The notes beneath the pieces were generated by a model. The model was given only the letters and a program-made list of their open reading frames with translations. It did not search any database and was not told the origin of the DNA. From Candidatus Omnitrophota bacterium (GTDB lineage: Bacteria > Omnitrophota > Omnitrophia > Omnitrophales > Danuiimicrobiaceae): a DNA stretch of 35,407 nucleotides. Below are positions 1,609 to 32,777 of this stretch, in pieces. The stretch's first letter is position 1. Each line of letters starts with the position of its first letter. The DNA lies in assembly GCA_016177155.1 (NCBI GenBank), contig JACOVU010000029.1:1-35407 (forward strand), written 5' to 3'. A program made the translations under genes and the position numbers.

Positions 1609-1947
1609 TCACCAGTTAGAGTCGTCGTACTTCCAGCTTGCGTATAGGTAATAATTTTTAATTTCTTGGTCATAATCCTCGAGCGTAAACGCAAAAGAGG
1701 AAATTCCGCCCTGTGGCAAACCATTGGGATCTGGGATAGTGCTTCGATTCAAAACTGGAAGTTCTTGTTCATTGAAAATGATGAGAGAAACTTTCAGATC
1801 GCAAATGGGGTGTCCAACATTGTTAATGACAATCCCTCTTAATTCAGGTCGGCCTTTGGGATCAAAACCCGAGGCGCCGCCTTTGACAATGACTTTGCGT
1901 GGTAACTTTTGGAAGGTTTCGATTTCAGGAAATTGTTCAATGCCCAT
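1609..1947 (-). CDS. Hypothetical protein, about 112 aa, possibly FxLYD-like beta-sandwich
   Basis: ORF 1609..2073, but its N-terminal part is translated repeat element, so the ATG at 1947 (MGIEQFPE) is preferred. The pattern LRGIVINN...LKVSLIIFN...LPQGGISSF resembles FxLYD-type domains. The stop is 5 nt before the acs start. Confidence 0.6.
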
Positions 1948-1982
1948 AGGTTTTGGAAATTCCACTATTGCATGGTTGGGTA

Positions 1983-2090
1983 TTATCCCACCACCTGCTT
2001 GTTTGCCACCTGTTGGTGGCAAATCTCTTTCGAGATGTAAGAGTGCGCGCTTAAAAGTGTGCGCTCTTATCAAGCAGGTGGTGGGATTAT
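1983..2090 (-). repeat. CCACCAC-family inverted-repeat element, promoter type, three internal hairpins
   Basis: Perfect 17-bp inverted repeat atcccaccacctgcttg (1985-2001) / caagcaggtggtgggat (2071-2087). ATAA direct repeats on the minus strand. Same layout as 30009-30115. Confidence 0.9.
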
Positions 2091-2133
2091 AATCGAAGGG
2101 GAAGGAATTACCTACAAAAAATTTAAATGACGG

Positions 2134-3840
2134 CTATGCAGCAAACGCCCTTACGGTTTGTTCCAGTTTCCGCTGGTCATAGGCATCCGGTTTGATATCG
2201 CCGCCTTTAAGGAGAAGATGGACAAAATGAAGGACCACGAGAGGATCAAACTGCGTTCCCGCATGTTGAATCAGTTCCCGAACCGCTTCTTCGCAGTTAA
2301 GCGTTCTCTTGTATCTTCCGCCCGCAACCCGCATCGTATCGTAAGCATCCAGCACGGAGACGATCCGCGCTCCAAAAGGAATTTCTCTCCCTTTGAGACG
2401 GTGCGGGTAACCTTCTCCATTGAACCACTCGTGATGATGTAAAATAATCAACGCTTCGTCCGCCAAAAATTTGATGGGTTTTACAATTTGATATCCCATC
2501 ACGGGATGCGCTTTCATCTTTTCATATTCCTGGTGGGTGTAGGCGCCTGGCTTCAGTAAAATCTCGTCGGAAACGCAAATCTTTCCGATGTCGTGCAAAA
2601 GTCCAGCGTGTTCAATAATCCGCACATCATCTTCCCCCAAACCCATTTCACGCGCAGTCAAAGCGGAGTAATGTCCAACGCGTGCCGCATGACCCATGGT
2701 ATGAGGATCTTTGGCTTCGAGTGCATTGATGAGTGCTTTGGTCGCTTCAATGTAAGCCCGTTTAGACATTTCGGAAATATCAAAGAGGCGTTGTCGGAAT
2801 TGGTACACTTTTTCATCGCTGAATTTCAAATCGGGAATCTGATTGACATAATCCTTGATGATATTCTTATAAAGGACGACTTGATTCCGTCCGTTGCTCT
2901 TGGCTCGATAAAGCGCCTTATCCGCGTAAAAGAGCATGGTTTCTTTCCGATCAATCGGATCTTCGGGATAAGAGGCAATGCCGATGCTCACAGAAATTTG
3001 AACGGGTGTGCCAGATCCAAGGGAGAAGGATTGATCCAAGATTTTCTTCCTCAGCCTTTCTGCAAGAAGGTTCGCTCCTTCATATCCAATATGAGGAAGC
3101 GAGACCACAAACTCTTCGCCGCCATAACGAGCGACGGTATCGGTCTGCCTCAGATAGGAAGTAAAAAAGGAAGCTAAGTTCTTCAAAATTTCATCTCCCG
3201 AAACATGACCATGGGTGTCATTGATCGTTTTAAACTGATCAATATCAACCATGAGGCAAGAAAGCGGATAATGATATCGAGTAGCACGAGCAAATTCTTC
3301 TGCCATTTTTTCTTGAAAGAACCGGTGATTGTATAAACCAGTGAGCTCATCACGTACGGAACGTTCCGAAAGTTTCCTGCCCAAAGTTTCGAGCTGTGTG
3401 TTCTTATTGGCAAGTTCCGTTTCCAATTTTTTCTCACGAACCACCATTTGATGACGTTCGCAAGCAGTTTCAATCATGTGAGGGAGTTCGCGGAATGAAT
3501 TTTCAGATTTGACAAGATAGTCCGAAAAACCTGACTTCAAAACGTTAAGGGCTAAAAGTTCGTCGCCCGCATGGGTCATCAGCAAGATGGGAATATAATA
3601 GTTTTTGGCCTTAATTTGGGCCAGGAAGTCAACGCTGGTTTGATCAGAAAGTTGGTAATCGGTTAGAACCAGATCGAAATCGTCCGTGCTTAGCTTCTCA
3701 AGCGCTTCTTTGACGGTAGAAGCTTGTTCCATTTTTGCCTTATTCTCTTCGGCCCAGCGGGATAGAGCCTGAAATGCTGAACCTGTTTTGTTTGGCTCAC
3801 ATTCAACTACCAAAATCTTAATTGGATGTTTCCGTTCCAT
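2134..3840 (-). CDS. Response regulator with REC, GGDEF and HD-GYP domains
   Basis: N-terminal REC, then DELTGLYN and RQTD(I-site)...RYGGEEF, then HDIGK and HHEWFNGEGYP. Start is ATG 3840 (MERKH) or GTG 3867. Confidence 0.92.
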   Translation of the reverse strand: MERKHPIKILVVECEPNKTGSAFQALSRWAEENKAKMEQASTVKEALEKLSTDDFDLVLTDYQLSDQTSVDFLAQIKAKNYYIPILLMTHAGDELLALNVLKSGFSDYLVKSENSFRELPHMIETACERHQMVVREKKLETELANKNTQLETLGRKLSERSVRDELTGLYNHRFFQEKMAEEFARATRYHYPLSCLMVDIDQFKTINDTHGHVSGDEILKNLASFFTSYLRQTDTVARYGGEEFVVSLPHIGYEGANLLAERLRKKILDQSFSLGSGTPVQISVSIGIASYPEDPIDRKETMLFYADKALYRAKSNGRNQVVLYKNIIKDYVNQIPDLKFSDEKVYQFRQRLFDISEMSKRAYIEATKALINALEAKDPHTMGHAARVGHYSALTAREMGLGEDDVRIIEHAGLLHDIGKICVSDEILLKPGAYTHQEYEKMKAHPVMGYQIVKPIKFLADEALIILHHHEWFNGEGYPHRLKGREIPFGARIVSVLDAYDTMRVAGGRYKRTLNCEEAVRELIQHAGTQFDPLVVLHFVHLLLKGGDIKPDAYDQRKLEQTVRAFAA

Positions 3841-3863
3841 AAAATGTGACACACCCCCTTGTT

Positions 3864-4253
3864 TCAACCAATTAAATTTTTGACGGTCGCAAGCAACTCC
3901 TCGGACTGATAGGGTTTTTTCAAATAACCATTCACCTTTTGTTCCATGACTAACTCGCGGACGCGATCGCTTTCTATCCCTGTTGCAACCACCACTGGAA
4001 TATGGAGACCCGTGCGGTCACGCCGTGCGTTCAAACTGATCAACGTTGTTAAACCATTACGGTCGGGCATGTCGATATCCATAATGATCAAACTCGGGCA
4101 GTAATCTTGCTCAAGCAACTCAAGCGCCTCGAGTCCGTTAAAAACGGCTGAAACGTGATAGCCCGCTGACTCGAGACGAGTGCGCGTCACCTCCGAATAA
4201 TCAAGATCATCATCTACCAATAGAATTTCTTTAAGATTTCGACTTTCGGTCAT
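3864..4253 (-). CDS. Single-domain response regulator (REC)
   Basis: ILLVDDD...IIMDIDMPDRNG...VATG...YLKKPY. Confidence 0.92.
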   Translation of the reverse strand: MTESRNLKEILLVDDDLDYSEVTRTRLESAGYHVSAVFNGLEALELLEQDYCPSLIIMDIDMPDRNGLTTLISLNARRDRTGLHIPVVVATGIESDRVRELVMEQKVNGYLKKPYQSEELLATVKNLIG

Positions 4254-13116: not shown

Positions 13117-13698
13117 CTATTTCCCCGTTTCAAGCAATTTAAATTCTGATGCCACTACTTTTTTAAAATGATTGCGGCGCGCCTCGGGAGCGTTTAAGGA
13201 TTGTTTGGTCTTCATGCGATCCTTGGACAATTTTTGTACCAAAGCAGAATATTTTGAACCAAATTCCTTTTCTAGTTTTTTCCGAAGCGTCTTGGCCAAA
13301 AGAGGACTTGCCCCTCCTGTTGAAATCGCGATTTGAAGTTTCCCGCGCTGAATGATCGACGGCACAATAAAAGTCGAATGCGTTGGATCATCTACCACAT
13401 TCACAAAAATCCCTTTTTTCTCGCACCATTCAAAAATAGTTCGGTTGAGCGCCTCATCTGAAGTTGCTGCCACCACAAGCTCAGGATTTTCTCCTTGCGG
13501 GATCTGAGATCCAAACCGAATATCGATTTTATTCGCCCGAGCAAACCGCTTAAAAGCCTTTGAACAATCATGGCTGATCACCAAAAGTTTTGCCCCTGCT
13601 TTGATCAGCGTCCGCGCCTTCCGAAGAGCCACGCCACCTCCTCCGAAAAGGAGCACTTTCTTTCCCTGAAGTTTAAGAAAAGCAGGATAGTATTTCAT
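13117..13698 (-). CDS. Precorrin-2 dehydrogenase / sirohydrochlorin ferrochelatase (SirC/Met8/CysG N-terminal family)
   Basis: MKYYPAFL, GGGGVALRK, VNVVDDP...FIVPS, AISTGGASP. True start is ATG 13698; the ORF extension to 13755 is repeat sequence. Confidence 0.93.
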   Translation of the reverse strand: MKYYPAFLKLQGKKVLLFGGGGVALRKARTLIKAGAKLLVISHDCSKAFKRFARANKIDIRFGSQIPQGENPELVVAATSDEALNRTIFEWCEKKGIFVNVVDDPTHSTFIVPSIIQRGKLQIAISTGGASPLLAKTLRKKLEKEFGSKYSALVQKLSKDRMKTKQSLNAPEARRNHFKKVVASEFKLLETGK

Positions 13699-13808
13699 CC
13701 CCCACCACTTTCCAAAAATAAATCTGACAGCAATGCCGTCGTTATTGATGGACAATAAACATTATATTCGTAGTTCAATGCGTAGTATAAAAAGTGGTGG
13801 GGGATCAT
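13695..13808 (-). repeat. CCACCAC-family stop-to-start inverted-repeat element, copy 1
   Basis: Minus strand: ATGA TCCCCCACCACTTT - 79 nt - AAAGTGGTGGGGG ATGA. Confidence 0.92.
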
Positions 13809-15226
13809 ATAAATTTAAGACGGTTCCTCTCTAAGAATTCCTCAAACTCATTTTCCAACGTGAACTTTGGAATCACCCGCAACCCGCTCAACTCTTCCGC
13901 CGCTTCGATCGTTTCCTGATCCACAGGATCAACCATGGCAAGCTCCAGTGCATCATCTTTGATCGTGATCGGAACAACCCGATGATCGCGCACAAACTCC
14001 TCAGTTAAAATGCGGGCGAGGTCTTCGGTTAAAATATGGTTCTTAAGGCTCACATAACCCACTGAGAATTTCGACTCAAGCAGCTTCCCGACTTCACTGC
14101 TCGAAACCGCATTCATCCGAATCAGAACTTGACCGATTCTCTCCCCGGTTTCGACATGACGTTTGACTGCTTGATTGAGTTCTATTTCCGTAATGAGCCC
14201 TGCATCAAGCAACAACTGCCCAAGCGGTTTTGAGGTATCGCGCTTCTCATCGCTGGGTGAAAGCACTTCCAGGGACTCTTGAAGCGAGCTCAAGGGCATT
14301 TCTCGTCGATCGCGAAGATAATGACTTCCAGGTTGCGTCTTAAGATAAGCTTTCACTTCTGCGGCGTCACGAGCAACCTCCGCCATGCTGCGGTACGGCC
14401 GGTACAGATTCGTTACCGCTGCGATCGAAAGACTCATCAAAGGAAAAGAAACAGGAACACCGCTCCTGTTTTTCACGAGGACGGATTTACGTTTTCGGTC
14501 TGCATCCTCATAATGCGTCGGAATAATTCGGTCAAACTCTTGAAGGCAAAGTTGGGCAAAACGAGTTTCGTGATCCGTATCCGTCACCACTACAAAATCA
14601 TCACCTCCAATGTGGCCGAAAAAACTATTCCGATCCGCTTCGCTCAATTCAAGACATCTTGCAATCAATTGAGCCGTATGCCGAATCACTTGATCTCCCC
14701 GTTCAAATCCATATCGATCATTAAAAGATTTAAAGTGGTTGATATCCATATAACAAACCGAGAAAAGTTCACTTCGATCAATGCGTTTTCGAATGTTTTC
14801 TTCAATCGCAATACTACCGGGCAGGTTGGTAAGCGGATTCGCCTGAAGCCGTTCGCGGGCGCGGGTGAGATTGAGTTCAATCCGGAGTTGGAGCGAAAAG
14901 GCATCAAAGGGTTTAATCAAAAAATCGTCAAACCCGCGGTCGCGGCTCAAAACGAGCTCTCTGACTTCATTCTCCTCGGCCAACAACATAATCGGAACGC
15001 CCAGGCCGGTAATGCTCTGCTTCATTTTTTTGGCGAGGTTCACCCCATCCACCTCTTCCATCGTCGTACCCATTAAGACGAGATCGAAGCGAACCTTTTG
15101 AACCAAGCGAATCGCCTCATCGCTATGGGTGGCAATAAATACATCATAATTTCGAGCCAGAAGTCTCGCCTCTAGAAGAGCGAGCGTATCTGAATCTTTC
15201 TCTGCAATTAAAATTTTGTAACTCAT
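13805..15226 (-). CDS. Atypical REC - GGDEF - MshEN/T2SSE_N fusion (putative diguanylate cyclase)
   Basis: REC-like N-terminus; NPLTNLPG, DINHFKSFNDRYG, GHIGGDDF; C-terminal PLGQLLLDAGLIT...ERIGQVLI and LAMVDP. Confidence 0.88.
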   Translation of the reverse strand: MSYKILIAEKDSDTLALLEARLLARNYDVFIATHSDEAIRLVQKVRFDLVLMGTTMEEVDGVNLAKKMKQSITGLGVPIMLLAEENEVRELVLSRDRGFDDFLIKPFDAFSLQLRIELNLTRARERLQANPLTNLPGSIAIEENIRKRIDRSELFSVCYMDINHFKSFNDRYGFERGDQVIRHTAQLIARCLELSEADRNSFFGHIGGDDFVVVTDTDHETRFAQLCLQEFDRIIPTHYEDADRKRKSVLVKNRSGVPVSFPLMSLSIAAVTNLYRPYRSMAEVARDAAEVKAYLKTQPGSHYLRDRREMPLSSLQESLEVLSPSDEKRDTSKPLGQLLLDAGLITEIELNQAVKRHVETGERIGQVLIRMNAVSSSEVGKLLESKFSVGYVSLKNHILTEDLARILTEEFVRDHRVVPITIKDDALELAMVDPVDQETIEAAEELSGLRVIPKFTLENEFEEFLERNRLKFI

Positions 15227-15307
15227 CCCCCACCACTTTTCCTGATTAACTTTTCCAATCTAATCTTAGATCCGCTCACCAAATTGCAAAAAGTGGTGGG
15301 GGATCAT
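15223..15307 (-). repeat. CCACCAC-family stop-to-start inverted-repeat element, copy 2
   Basis: Minus strand: ATGA TCCCCCACCACTTT - 50 nt - AAAGTGGTGGGGG ATGA. Confidence 0.92.
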
Positions 15308-21395: not shown

Positions 21396-21481
21396 TTTAC
21401 CCAGTTAGAAATTTTCCTTACAACGAAATAAAACTATCAGTGGTTTTACTTTTAAGTTTCCCCGATTTCTAACGGGGTTTA
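21396..21481. repeat. CCCCGTTAGAAA-family inverted-repeat (MITE-like) element, copy 1
   Basis: cccagttagaaat (from 21400) ... atttctaacgggg (to 21477), flanked by ttta direct repeats. Confidence 0.8.
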
Positions 21482-29985: not shown

Positions 29986-30013
29986 TTGATCTTGGCTGGG
30001 AAACTGCTATAAT
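29986..30013 (+). promoter_or_regulatory. Promoter for ino1 (extended -10)
   Basis: TTGATC - 16 nt - TATAAT, with TG one base upstream of the -10 (TGcTATAAT). Confidence 0.65.
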
Positions 30014-30115
30014 CCCACCACTTGTTTGACAAGAACGCGATTTATGAACAAGCGCGTTCTTGTGTCTCTTCGAGATTTCACCCCGCACGGGATGAACAAA
30101 CAGGTGGTGGGATAA
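30009..30115 (+). repeat. CCACCAC-family inverted-repeat element, promoter type, three internal hairpins
   Basis: ATAA-TCCCACCACTTGTTTG ... CAAACAGGTGGTGGG-ATAA; same layout as 1983-2090. Confidence 0.9.
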
Positions 30116-31281: not shown

Positions 31282-31390
31282 GCCCCGTTAGAAACACTTT
31301 CGTCGCAATAATAATAGAATATTCAAAGAGAGCACTGTGTCTAAATTGAGATCTTCGTGGAATTGCGCACCGGCTTTCTAACGGGGTAAG
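31279..31390. repeat. CCCCGTTAGAAA-family inverted-repeat (MITE-like) element, copy 2
   Basis: TAAG-ccccgttagaaa (31283-31294) ... tttctaacgggg (31375-31386)-TAAG. Confidence 0.88.
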
Positions 31391-32010: not shown

Positions 32011-32727
32011 TCACATTCTCAAGATGTTCCTCGCGTTCCCGCTGAAAACAGGCTCGCGCTTGGAGGATGGAAGTAAATATTCAAACTTTTTGATCTCGAG
32101 CCCCAAGTGGGAATAGGGAATGTCAGAAGCAAATACCACTTTATGCGCTCCCACTTCCCGAAGGATTTGCCCGGTTCGGTAGTAAGAAAGTGTAGAGGTA
32201 TCTAAATAAACGTTTTTAAGCTCTTTCGCGATCTCGATCGCCTCTCGAAATAAATCTTTCCCCGAATGAGCCAGTACAAAAAAAGTCCTGGGATAAGCTT
32301 TAAAAATATGATGCCACTCGCTTGGGTGGCAATTGGGTTCGTGGCCCGTATGGAGTACTACCGCTAATCGCTTTTGGTCAATCGCTTCAAAAAGAGGTTT
32401 CGCTAGGTGGGCATTGAACCGATCCGAACGCGGATGAAGTTTGACCGCCCGAAAGCCTAAGCGGACGGCGTGGTCAATCTCTTCAAAAGAAGCTTTCTTC
32501 TCATTGGGATTAAGTCTGGCGCACCCGATCAAACTCCGCTCGCGTTCAATCACTCGGGCAATCTTCCGGTTCATCCGAGCATAAGCAGGACCGGGACTTG
32601 CTTCATCAATCGGAAATATAACGCTCTTTGCAACCCCAAAACGCCTCATCACGTTCAGCATATCAGAAAGCGTTTGGCGTGCGCCATCGCGTGAATGGCC
32701 CAAGTGGGTGTGGAAATCGATGATCAT
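32011..32727 (-). CDS. Metal-dependent amidohydrolase (Amidohydro_2-like TIM barrel)
   Basis: IDFHTH, AVKLHP, VLHTG, LAHSG, YLDTS, VFASDIPY, GNARNIL. Confidence 0.9.
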   Translation of the reverse strand: MIIDFHTHLGHSRDGARQTLSDMLNVMRRFGVAKSVIFPIDEASPGPAYARMNRKIARVIERERSLIGCARLNPNEKKASFEEIDHAVRLGFRAVKLHPRSDRFNAHLAKPLFEAIDQKRLAVVLHTGHEPNCHPSEWHHIFKAYPRTFFVLAHSGKDLFREAIEIAKELKNVYLDTSTLSYYRTGQILREVGAHKVVFASDIPYSHLGLEIKKFEYLLPSSKREPVFSGNARNILRM

Positions 32728-32777
32728 CCCCCACCACTTTTCAGGTTGATAGATTCAAGAAAGTGGTGGGGGATCAT
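32724..32777 (-). repeat. CCACCAC-family stop-to-start inverted-repeat element, copy 3
   Basis: Minus strand: ATGA TCCCCCACCACTTT - 19 nt - AAAGTGGTGGGGG ATGA. Confidence 0.92.

Follow-up and report, generated by a model that had tools for sequence, protein, structure and literature searches.

A structured mobile element that rebuilds a TATAAT box in an Omnitrophota genome, and its putative GIY-YIG nuclease-encoding parent

Bacterial MITEs, such as the Correia elements (CREE) of Neisseria, ERIC, and RUP, are described as sequences of about 50–200 bp with terminal inverted repeats, a target duplication, a strong fold, and both filled and empty sites, and Correia elements also contribute promoter sequence (PMC10969869, PMC3184786). 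The element described here has the same size range, type of ends, duplication, strong folding, and filled and empty sites. In contrast to these MITEs, however, its apparent parent encodes a GIY-YIG nuclease of about 110 aa rather than a transposase of a known IS family, its duplication is a 3-bp T-purine-A triplet, its terminal bases rebuild a −10 box or a start codon, and it is predicted to fold into a four-way junction. Hairpin ends, mirror-arranged sub-terminal hairpins, and likely single-strand recognition are also shared with REP/REPIN sequences and their RAYT proteins and with IS200/IS605, but those systems have an HUH/Y1 enzyme and GTAG or CGTC tags; for the CGTC repeats, the accessible text reports no dedicated transposase and does not use the term target site (PMC3733652).

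Two further systems involve GIY-YIG enzymes themselves. The Ssn nucleases with their NTS/SRM repeats resemble the present family in their single-domain GIY-YIG gene, abundant hairpin repeats, and proposed mobility (Chenal et al. 2025, PMC11893778), whereas here the gene is contained in a single element, with the first and last residues of the protein encoded by the element's ends, and the element has a target duplication and exact empty sites. The best sequence and fold matches of the element nuclease are the Slx1/UPF0213 nucleases (PDB 1zg2, 7cq2-4, 6seh). Slx1 is described as cutting branched DNA, and bacterial Slx1-like proteins as stand-alone, predicted repair enzymes (PMC1564403); the nuclease gene of this family is instead the sole cargo of an inserted element.

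The window, which is the whole analysed stretch of 35,407 nucleotides, contains at positions 1986–2086 a 101-bp copy of this mobile element, read on the minus strand and ending in T...A. The features of the locus are as follows.

1609–1947, minus strand: downstream host gene, 112 aa, no Pfam family, 74–84% identical in four same-genus genomes
1982–1990, minus strand: hybrid TG-n-GATAAT extended −10-like site formed with the right end of the element, with a −35-like hexamer starting at 2009 (consensus match)
1983–1985, minus strand: downstream TAA of the 3-bp target duplication, as read on the minus strand
1986–2086, no strand assigned: non-autonomous element with T...A ends and a predicted four-way junction (sequence, folding, and family comparison)
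1986–2001, minus strand: 3′ closing arm, 16-bp terminal inverted repeat
2003–2022, minus strand: hairpin 3
2023–2036, minus strand: hairpin 2
2038–2069, minus strand: hairpin 1, the loop of which holds the nuclease gene in autonomous copies
2071–2086, minus strand: 5′ closing arm, 16-bp terminal inverted repeat
2086–2091, minus strand: rebuilt TATAAT box, the final T of which is the first base of the element (sequence and empty orthologues)
2087–2089, minus strand: upstream TAA of the 3-bp target duplication, as read on the minus strand
2134–3867, minus strand: upstream host gene with receiver, GGDEF, and HD domains

All pieces of the three-hairpin element that had been read from the sequence alone are found on the minus strand, and the spacing of 100 bp between the ATAA repeats is confirmed. 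In the predicted fold, a 16-bp closing stem (2086–2071 with 2001–1986) surrounds the three hairpins to give a four-way junction. The folding energies are −74.7 (plus strand) and −62.8 (minus strand) kcal/mol as RNA, with z-scores of −14.0 and −12.2, and −41.8 and −38.4 kcal/mol as DNA, with z-scores of −12.7 and −11.5; none of 200 shuffles folded as well.

The sequence-only reading counted two copies, whereas 85 are present in the 1.38-Mb genome, five of them within the window. A strict end motif gave 65 paired elements genome-wide and a relaxed motif 86, and one contig-end copy and one false positive were excluded before the count of 85. An exact 3-bp duplication flanks 82 of the 85 copies (70 TGA, 11 TAA, and 1 TGG), and the flanks mismatch in the other three. 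The base preceding the triplet varies at the TGA sites (62 A, 6 G, and 2 T), and at the single TGG site the triplet is duplicated on both sides. This variable preceding base (GTGA and TTGA sites) and the TGG site set the duplication at 3 bp and place the element at 1986–2086, although at the focal locus alone a duplication of 3 bp cannot be told from one of 4 or 5 bp. A four- or five-base duplication is thus ruled out by the same sites; the ATAA repeat noted earlier at the element's ends does exist, but the actual target duplication within it is the 3-bp TAA. The other copies within the window are listed below.

13698–13804, minus strand: related five-C-end copy, stop/start junction, duplicated TGA
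15226–15303, minus strand: related five-C-end copy, stop/start junction, duplicated TGA
30013–30112, plus strand: second TATAAT-inserted copy, TAA duplication, preceding an inositol-1-phosphate synthase gene
32727–32773, minus strand: related five-C-end copy, stop/start junction, duplicated TGA

The suggested kinship of the focal element with stop-to-start elements is supported. A three-branch fold is predicted for 55 of the 62 short copies in a set from which five-C-end copies and copies longer than 200 bp were excluded. Activity of the family may not be current, since no two copies in this genome are identical. A strict end pattern is present in 7 of 31 related genomes, this one included; the element pattern has no match in viral contigs.

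Several side observations concern the repeats of this genome. In the five-C-end subtype (21 short copies), the interiors are AT-rich and differ between copies, and the subtype is seen at TGA sites only; no nuclease-carrying parent with five-C ends was found, and the G-U pairs of this subtype lean to the host strand (71 versus 44). Two longer copies (C69:10329–10519 and C123:19608–19795) hold other nested repeats, the C69 copy containing a CGTC-type repeat pair. A 167-bp copy (C132:14333–14499) consists of two similar halves that form an almost perfect palindrome; its flanks are inverted, with no direct duplication, and it is possibly a recombination product. Another inverted-repeat pair, with ends of the AACGGGG/CCCCGTT type, lies at 31286–31388 of the window between the inositol-phosphate synthase and arginine decarboxylase genes, and motifs resembling it also occur near 21400–21480.

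Insertion into a −10 box with rebuilding of that box, as first proposed from the sequence, is supported both by empty orthologous boxes and by the statistics of the sites. A TATAAT is restored at 6 of the 11 TAA sites, compared with 390 of 39,289 TAA triplets genome-wide (1%; p = 4e-10); in the intergenic-only background, the count is 158 of 6277. A TG extension precedes the box at four of the six TATAAT insertion sites versus 28 of the 390 background TATAAT sequences (p = 3.5e-4). TATAAT is enriched among the TAA sites; across the family such sites are a minority (6 of 85), and most copies rebuild start codons. The focal downstream gene is held by four of five same-genus genomes, and was not found in the fifth (G001) with the query used. 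In three of these four, the promoter is empty, with a plain TATAAT or TACAAT 24–25 nt before the ATG, and a contig about 90% identical from sequencing run X5 of another study joins 1948 to 2086 by 33 other letters, so that the focal element is absent, the box is kept, and the leader has diverged; the search for element-free orthologous promoters that had been proposed thus found them. At a second site, before a gene that we take to be glgB-like, an empty −10-like hexamer is present in all five relatives. At a third, this genome has the empty TATAAT and the relative G003 has two tandem elements. The comparison genes on contigs C134 and C105 lie in other contexts or at contig ends in the relatives, and the gene behind the TATAAT copy of G002 was not found in this genome. 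In 400 further genomes of the phylum, the TAA-class pattern gave five matches in three genomes, two at TATAAT, one at GATAAT, and two at other sequences. That the focal element is an inserted mobile copy with a TAA duplication is the main reading of the locus, to which we assign a probability of about 0.95.

In a tandem pair within one TATAAT box (L061:1511–1663), the second element is inserted into the hybrid GATAAT created by the first, and tandem copies sharing one triplet are also seen at contig C124 of this genome and at L025, L036, and L039. In the fourth gene-holding genome (G004; L016:529–751), the focal −10 box is occupied by an unrelated multi-hairpin insert of about 200 bp, which folds at about −104 kcal/mol and lies between the two copies of an 8-bp direct repeat that takes in most of the box; a second family, typified by this insert, may favour −10 boxes.

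The picture of the family drawn from the window alone was incomplete, since it missed both the predominance of start-codon sites and the nuclease-encoding parents. This genome also contains two long copies (320 and 329 bp) that share the ends of the short ones and have a GIY-YIG gene within the hairpin 1 loop; the whole long element is one open reading frame running from the host ATG to a TGA that overlaps the rebuilt ATG. Run X5 lacks one long copy by exactly 323 bp, which is 320 + 3, and in the relatives this junction is a plain ATGA in three of four and holds a short element in the fourth. Homologous loci come from records titled Candidatus Omnitrophota, Planctomycetia, and Elusimicrobia, and both ends, together with an agreeing 3-bp duplication, are present at 25 of 31 such loci (22 distinct without three duplicate pairs); the remaining six comprise two unrelated nucleases, two with mismatched flanks, and two without a recognisable end. 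The end types co-vary with the site across loci, T...A ends rebuilding ATG and C...G ends rebuilding GTG. In-frame internal deletions of the nuclease gene give elements of 167 and 185 bp (L034 and L055), which are intermediates between parent and short forms. On this sequence comparison, the short copies are derivatives that lost the gene from the loop of hairpin 1.

The translated left end of the element supplies the N-terminus of 42 of 64 homologues (MIPPP, MTPPP, MIPSP, or MIPPS), and the translated right end supplies a V-V-G type tail at the C-terminus of 50 of the 64. Y27, G29, R37, H41, and E73 are invariant across 36 aligned proteins, so that sequence and model together show a GIY-YIG fold with its conserved Tyr, Arg, and Glu, and the predicted structure (pLDDT 80) best matches the UPF0213 and Slx1 structures. 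Cleavage of branched DNA by the element nuclease is inferred from this modelled likeness. The only NCBIfam match was a sub-threshold one to a group I intron endonuclease model, and the nuclease has no match in the plasmid collection. A profile search of 1.84 billion representatives gave 20 clusters at E 1e-30 or better, so the nuclease family is small. In a tree of 57 rows chosen by similarity, from which 17 duplicate or fragment rows had been dropped and in which the bootstrap was unsettled, the 25 element nucleases group together (99/96), and three SRM-flanked nucleases fall on a separate branch (100/100). Five related Omnitrophota-order genomes (L088–L117) have 9–13 GIY-YIG matches each, mostly short genes of several clades, and further small repeat families may have their parents in these other clades.

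Most copies of the family lie at ATGA start/stop junctions, where the last base of the element together with TG remakes the ATG. By crude gene calls (1176 genes), 61 of the 71 left-TGA sites are at a called start and/or stop codon, six are at other intergenic places, and four are in called coding DNA, compared with a background, counting ATGA only, of 636 sites of the start/stop class and 1604 at other intergenic places. Selection clearly acts on the inserted copies: among 69 TGA-class copies, a set that excludes copies longer than 260 bp, 50 can be read through in the host frame without meeting an internal stop, compared with 28 when flipped, and 42 have a length with remainder 2 modulo 3 (p = 3e-6), a frame bias that is absent from the TAA-class copies (5/4/3 of 12). 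The gathering at −10 boxes and start codons is most likely the product of a short sequence preference and of selection for harmless sites, and access to DNA melted by RNA polymerase possibly aids the choice of site. The strongest competing explanation, which we hold tentatively and at well under even odds, is that the nuclease actively targets polymerase-melted DNA, namely open complexes at −10 boxes and pauses at start codons, and that the bias arises chiefly at the insertion step rather than through selection. It would account for the concentration at start and stop codons in the face of the ATGA background, for flanks that carry little signal beyond the −1 base in the 85 copies, and for the copy inserted into a hybrid GATAAT made by an earlier one; in E. 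coli and B. subtilis, a pause consensus is also described as enriched at sites of translation initiation (PMC5234074, citing Larson 2014). The evident selection on stops and lengths argues against it, however, and the intergenic sites of the background are perhaps not neutral.

With regard to the mobiliser, the Slx1-like GIY-YIG nuclease of the 320-bp parents is probably the enzyme that moves the element, judging from the sequences of the family. The host TATAAT box was entered with duplication of the TAA triplet and rebuilt. The family inserts at T-purine-A triplets with a 3-bp duplication, the first base restoring TATAAT and the last base restoring ATG, or GTG in the C...G variant. A route of nicking and repair is plausible, though we place it slightly short of an even chance: the element strands would fold into the four-way junction and be nicked there by the nuclease, nicks staggered by 3 nt would open the target, and the insertion would be completed by the polymerase and ligase of the host. 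As GIY-YIG enzymes hydrolyse DNA (PMC3664794), strand joining would need host factors. Searches of this genome, which is 86% complete, gave no match to DDE_Tnp_1, DDE_Tnp_4, or RVT_1; a helper may act in trans, the search having covered three transposase families and RVT_1. The contigs compared contain no joint that would indicate a circular form, and rare forms drop out of contigs.

Alternatively, a DDE transposase acting in trans could move the element as an ordinary MITE, with the GIY-YIG gene as a passenger. 3-bp TNA duplications are typical of IS5/IS1031-like elements, and a fixed 3-bp duplication suits the staggered cut of a transposase. Terminal inverted repeats with a short duplication are the signature of MITEs (PMC3184786), and the present copies have 16-bp terminal inverted repeats and exact duplications in 82 of 85 cases, and are short, multi-copy, devoid of a mobilising gene, and known from filled and empty sites. 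This explanation is nevertheless improbable: beside the missing DDE_Tnp_1 and DDE_Tnp_4 matches, no autonomous IS with a transposase of known type has matching ends within the families searched and the completeness of the genome, the long copies all carry the GIY-YIG gene or a deletion of it and no other cargo, and the nuclease clade tracks the element ends across three phyla. The single Y1_Tnp match in this genome (C16:1148–1411), which we presume to be RAYT-like, has its own GTAG-type hairpin repeats and not the ends of the family.

Membership in the Ssn nuclease/SRM system of CGTC-type REP sequences is highly unlikely, even though a small single-domain GIY-YIG gene lies within hairpin repeats in both and NTS-ssnA-NTS has been proposed as a mobile element by Chenal et al. 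(PMC11893778). The SRM pattern occurs in none of the 85 elements, the element nucleases form a clade separate from the SRM-flanked ones, which serve here as a proxy for Ssn (cd10448), and the available text on that system describes no target duplication (PMC11893778).

It is scarcely credible that the element is a regulatory RNA, either a structured 5′ leader or an antisense transcript, with the plus strand as the folding strand. The three mismatches of hairpin 1 are indeed G-U (G-T) pairs on the plus strand of the focal copy, as had been noted, and this copy has four G-T pairs on that strand, where its RNA fold is better by about 12 kcal/mol. The inference of a plus folding strand as antisense RNA or single-stranded DNA nevertheless fails for the family: G-T and A-C mismatches on the host strand number 17 versus 19 in the 62 short copies, and when the 38 orientable copies are instead read in element orientation the count is 10 versus 9, while copy 2 (30013–30112) has the opposite strand bias to the focal copy. 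The loops of the terminal hairpins are mirror-symmetric, being purine-rich in 22 of 24 5′ hairpins and pyrimidine-rich in 24 of 27 3′ hairpins, a pattern more in keeping with two equivalent DNA ends than with a single folding strand. Orthologous promoters do without the element, and the proposed comparison with Rfam gave 0 matches at gathering score in the whole window. Two other candidates fall away, an integron-like cassette because the flanking genes of the window are housekeeping and signalling genes and the sites are singly duplicated, and a Penelope-like retroelement because the genome has no RVT_1 match and a 320-bp element has no room for a reverse transcriptase.

For the downstream gene of the inserted focal copy, two boxes come into question. 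The left TATAAT is perfect and retains the native upstream DNA. Sigma-70 transcription starts about 7 nt past the −10 box, and a start about 7 nt after the left box would place most of the element in the mRNA, as the sequence-only reading of a 5′ leader proposed. The hybrid GATAAT at the right end lies at the original distance from the gene, and one consensus match was found where 0.6 was expected, a weak hint that the right-end site could be a promoter. Either or both boxes may be used for transcription. Among the sequencing runs listed as containing the sequence there is no RNA run, a result that has no bearing on expression.

Literature searches, the scope of which lay outside subscription journals and supplements, found no published description of the element family, and the main text of a preprint on Omnitrophota genomes (10.64898/2026.06.07.730766) contains 'MITE' and 'inverted repeat' 0 times. 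The short copy alone is MITE-like, and the novelty rests on the nuclease-encoding parent. We know of no insertion-sequence family whose only enzyme is a hydrolytic GIY-YIG nuclease of about 110 residues, and the GIY-YIG mini-transposon behind the focal copy is likely a new class. The more specific proposition remains doubtful, namely that the new class is an insertion sequence of about 320 bp whose sole enzyme is an Slx1-like GIY-YIG nuclease, which inserts into polymerase-melted DNA at −10 boxes and start-codon pause sites, borrows the host start codon for its expression, and rebuilds the box or codon.

If the nuclease is a passenger only, the family would be a new MITE family of moderate interest. 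If the nuclease moves the element, a new transposition chemistry and a very small autonomous unit would be at hand, and the idea of Chenal et al. of mobile GIY-YIG/hairpin pairs would become directly testable, because the ends, the duplication, and the empty sites are known to the base. For the organism, insertion with rebuilding of −10 boxes and start codons also offers a way for about 85 structured inserts to reshape leaders and gene junctions across a small genome.
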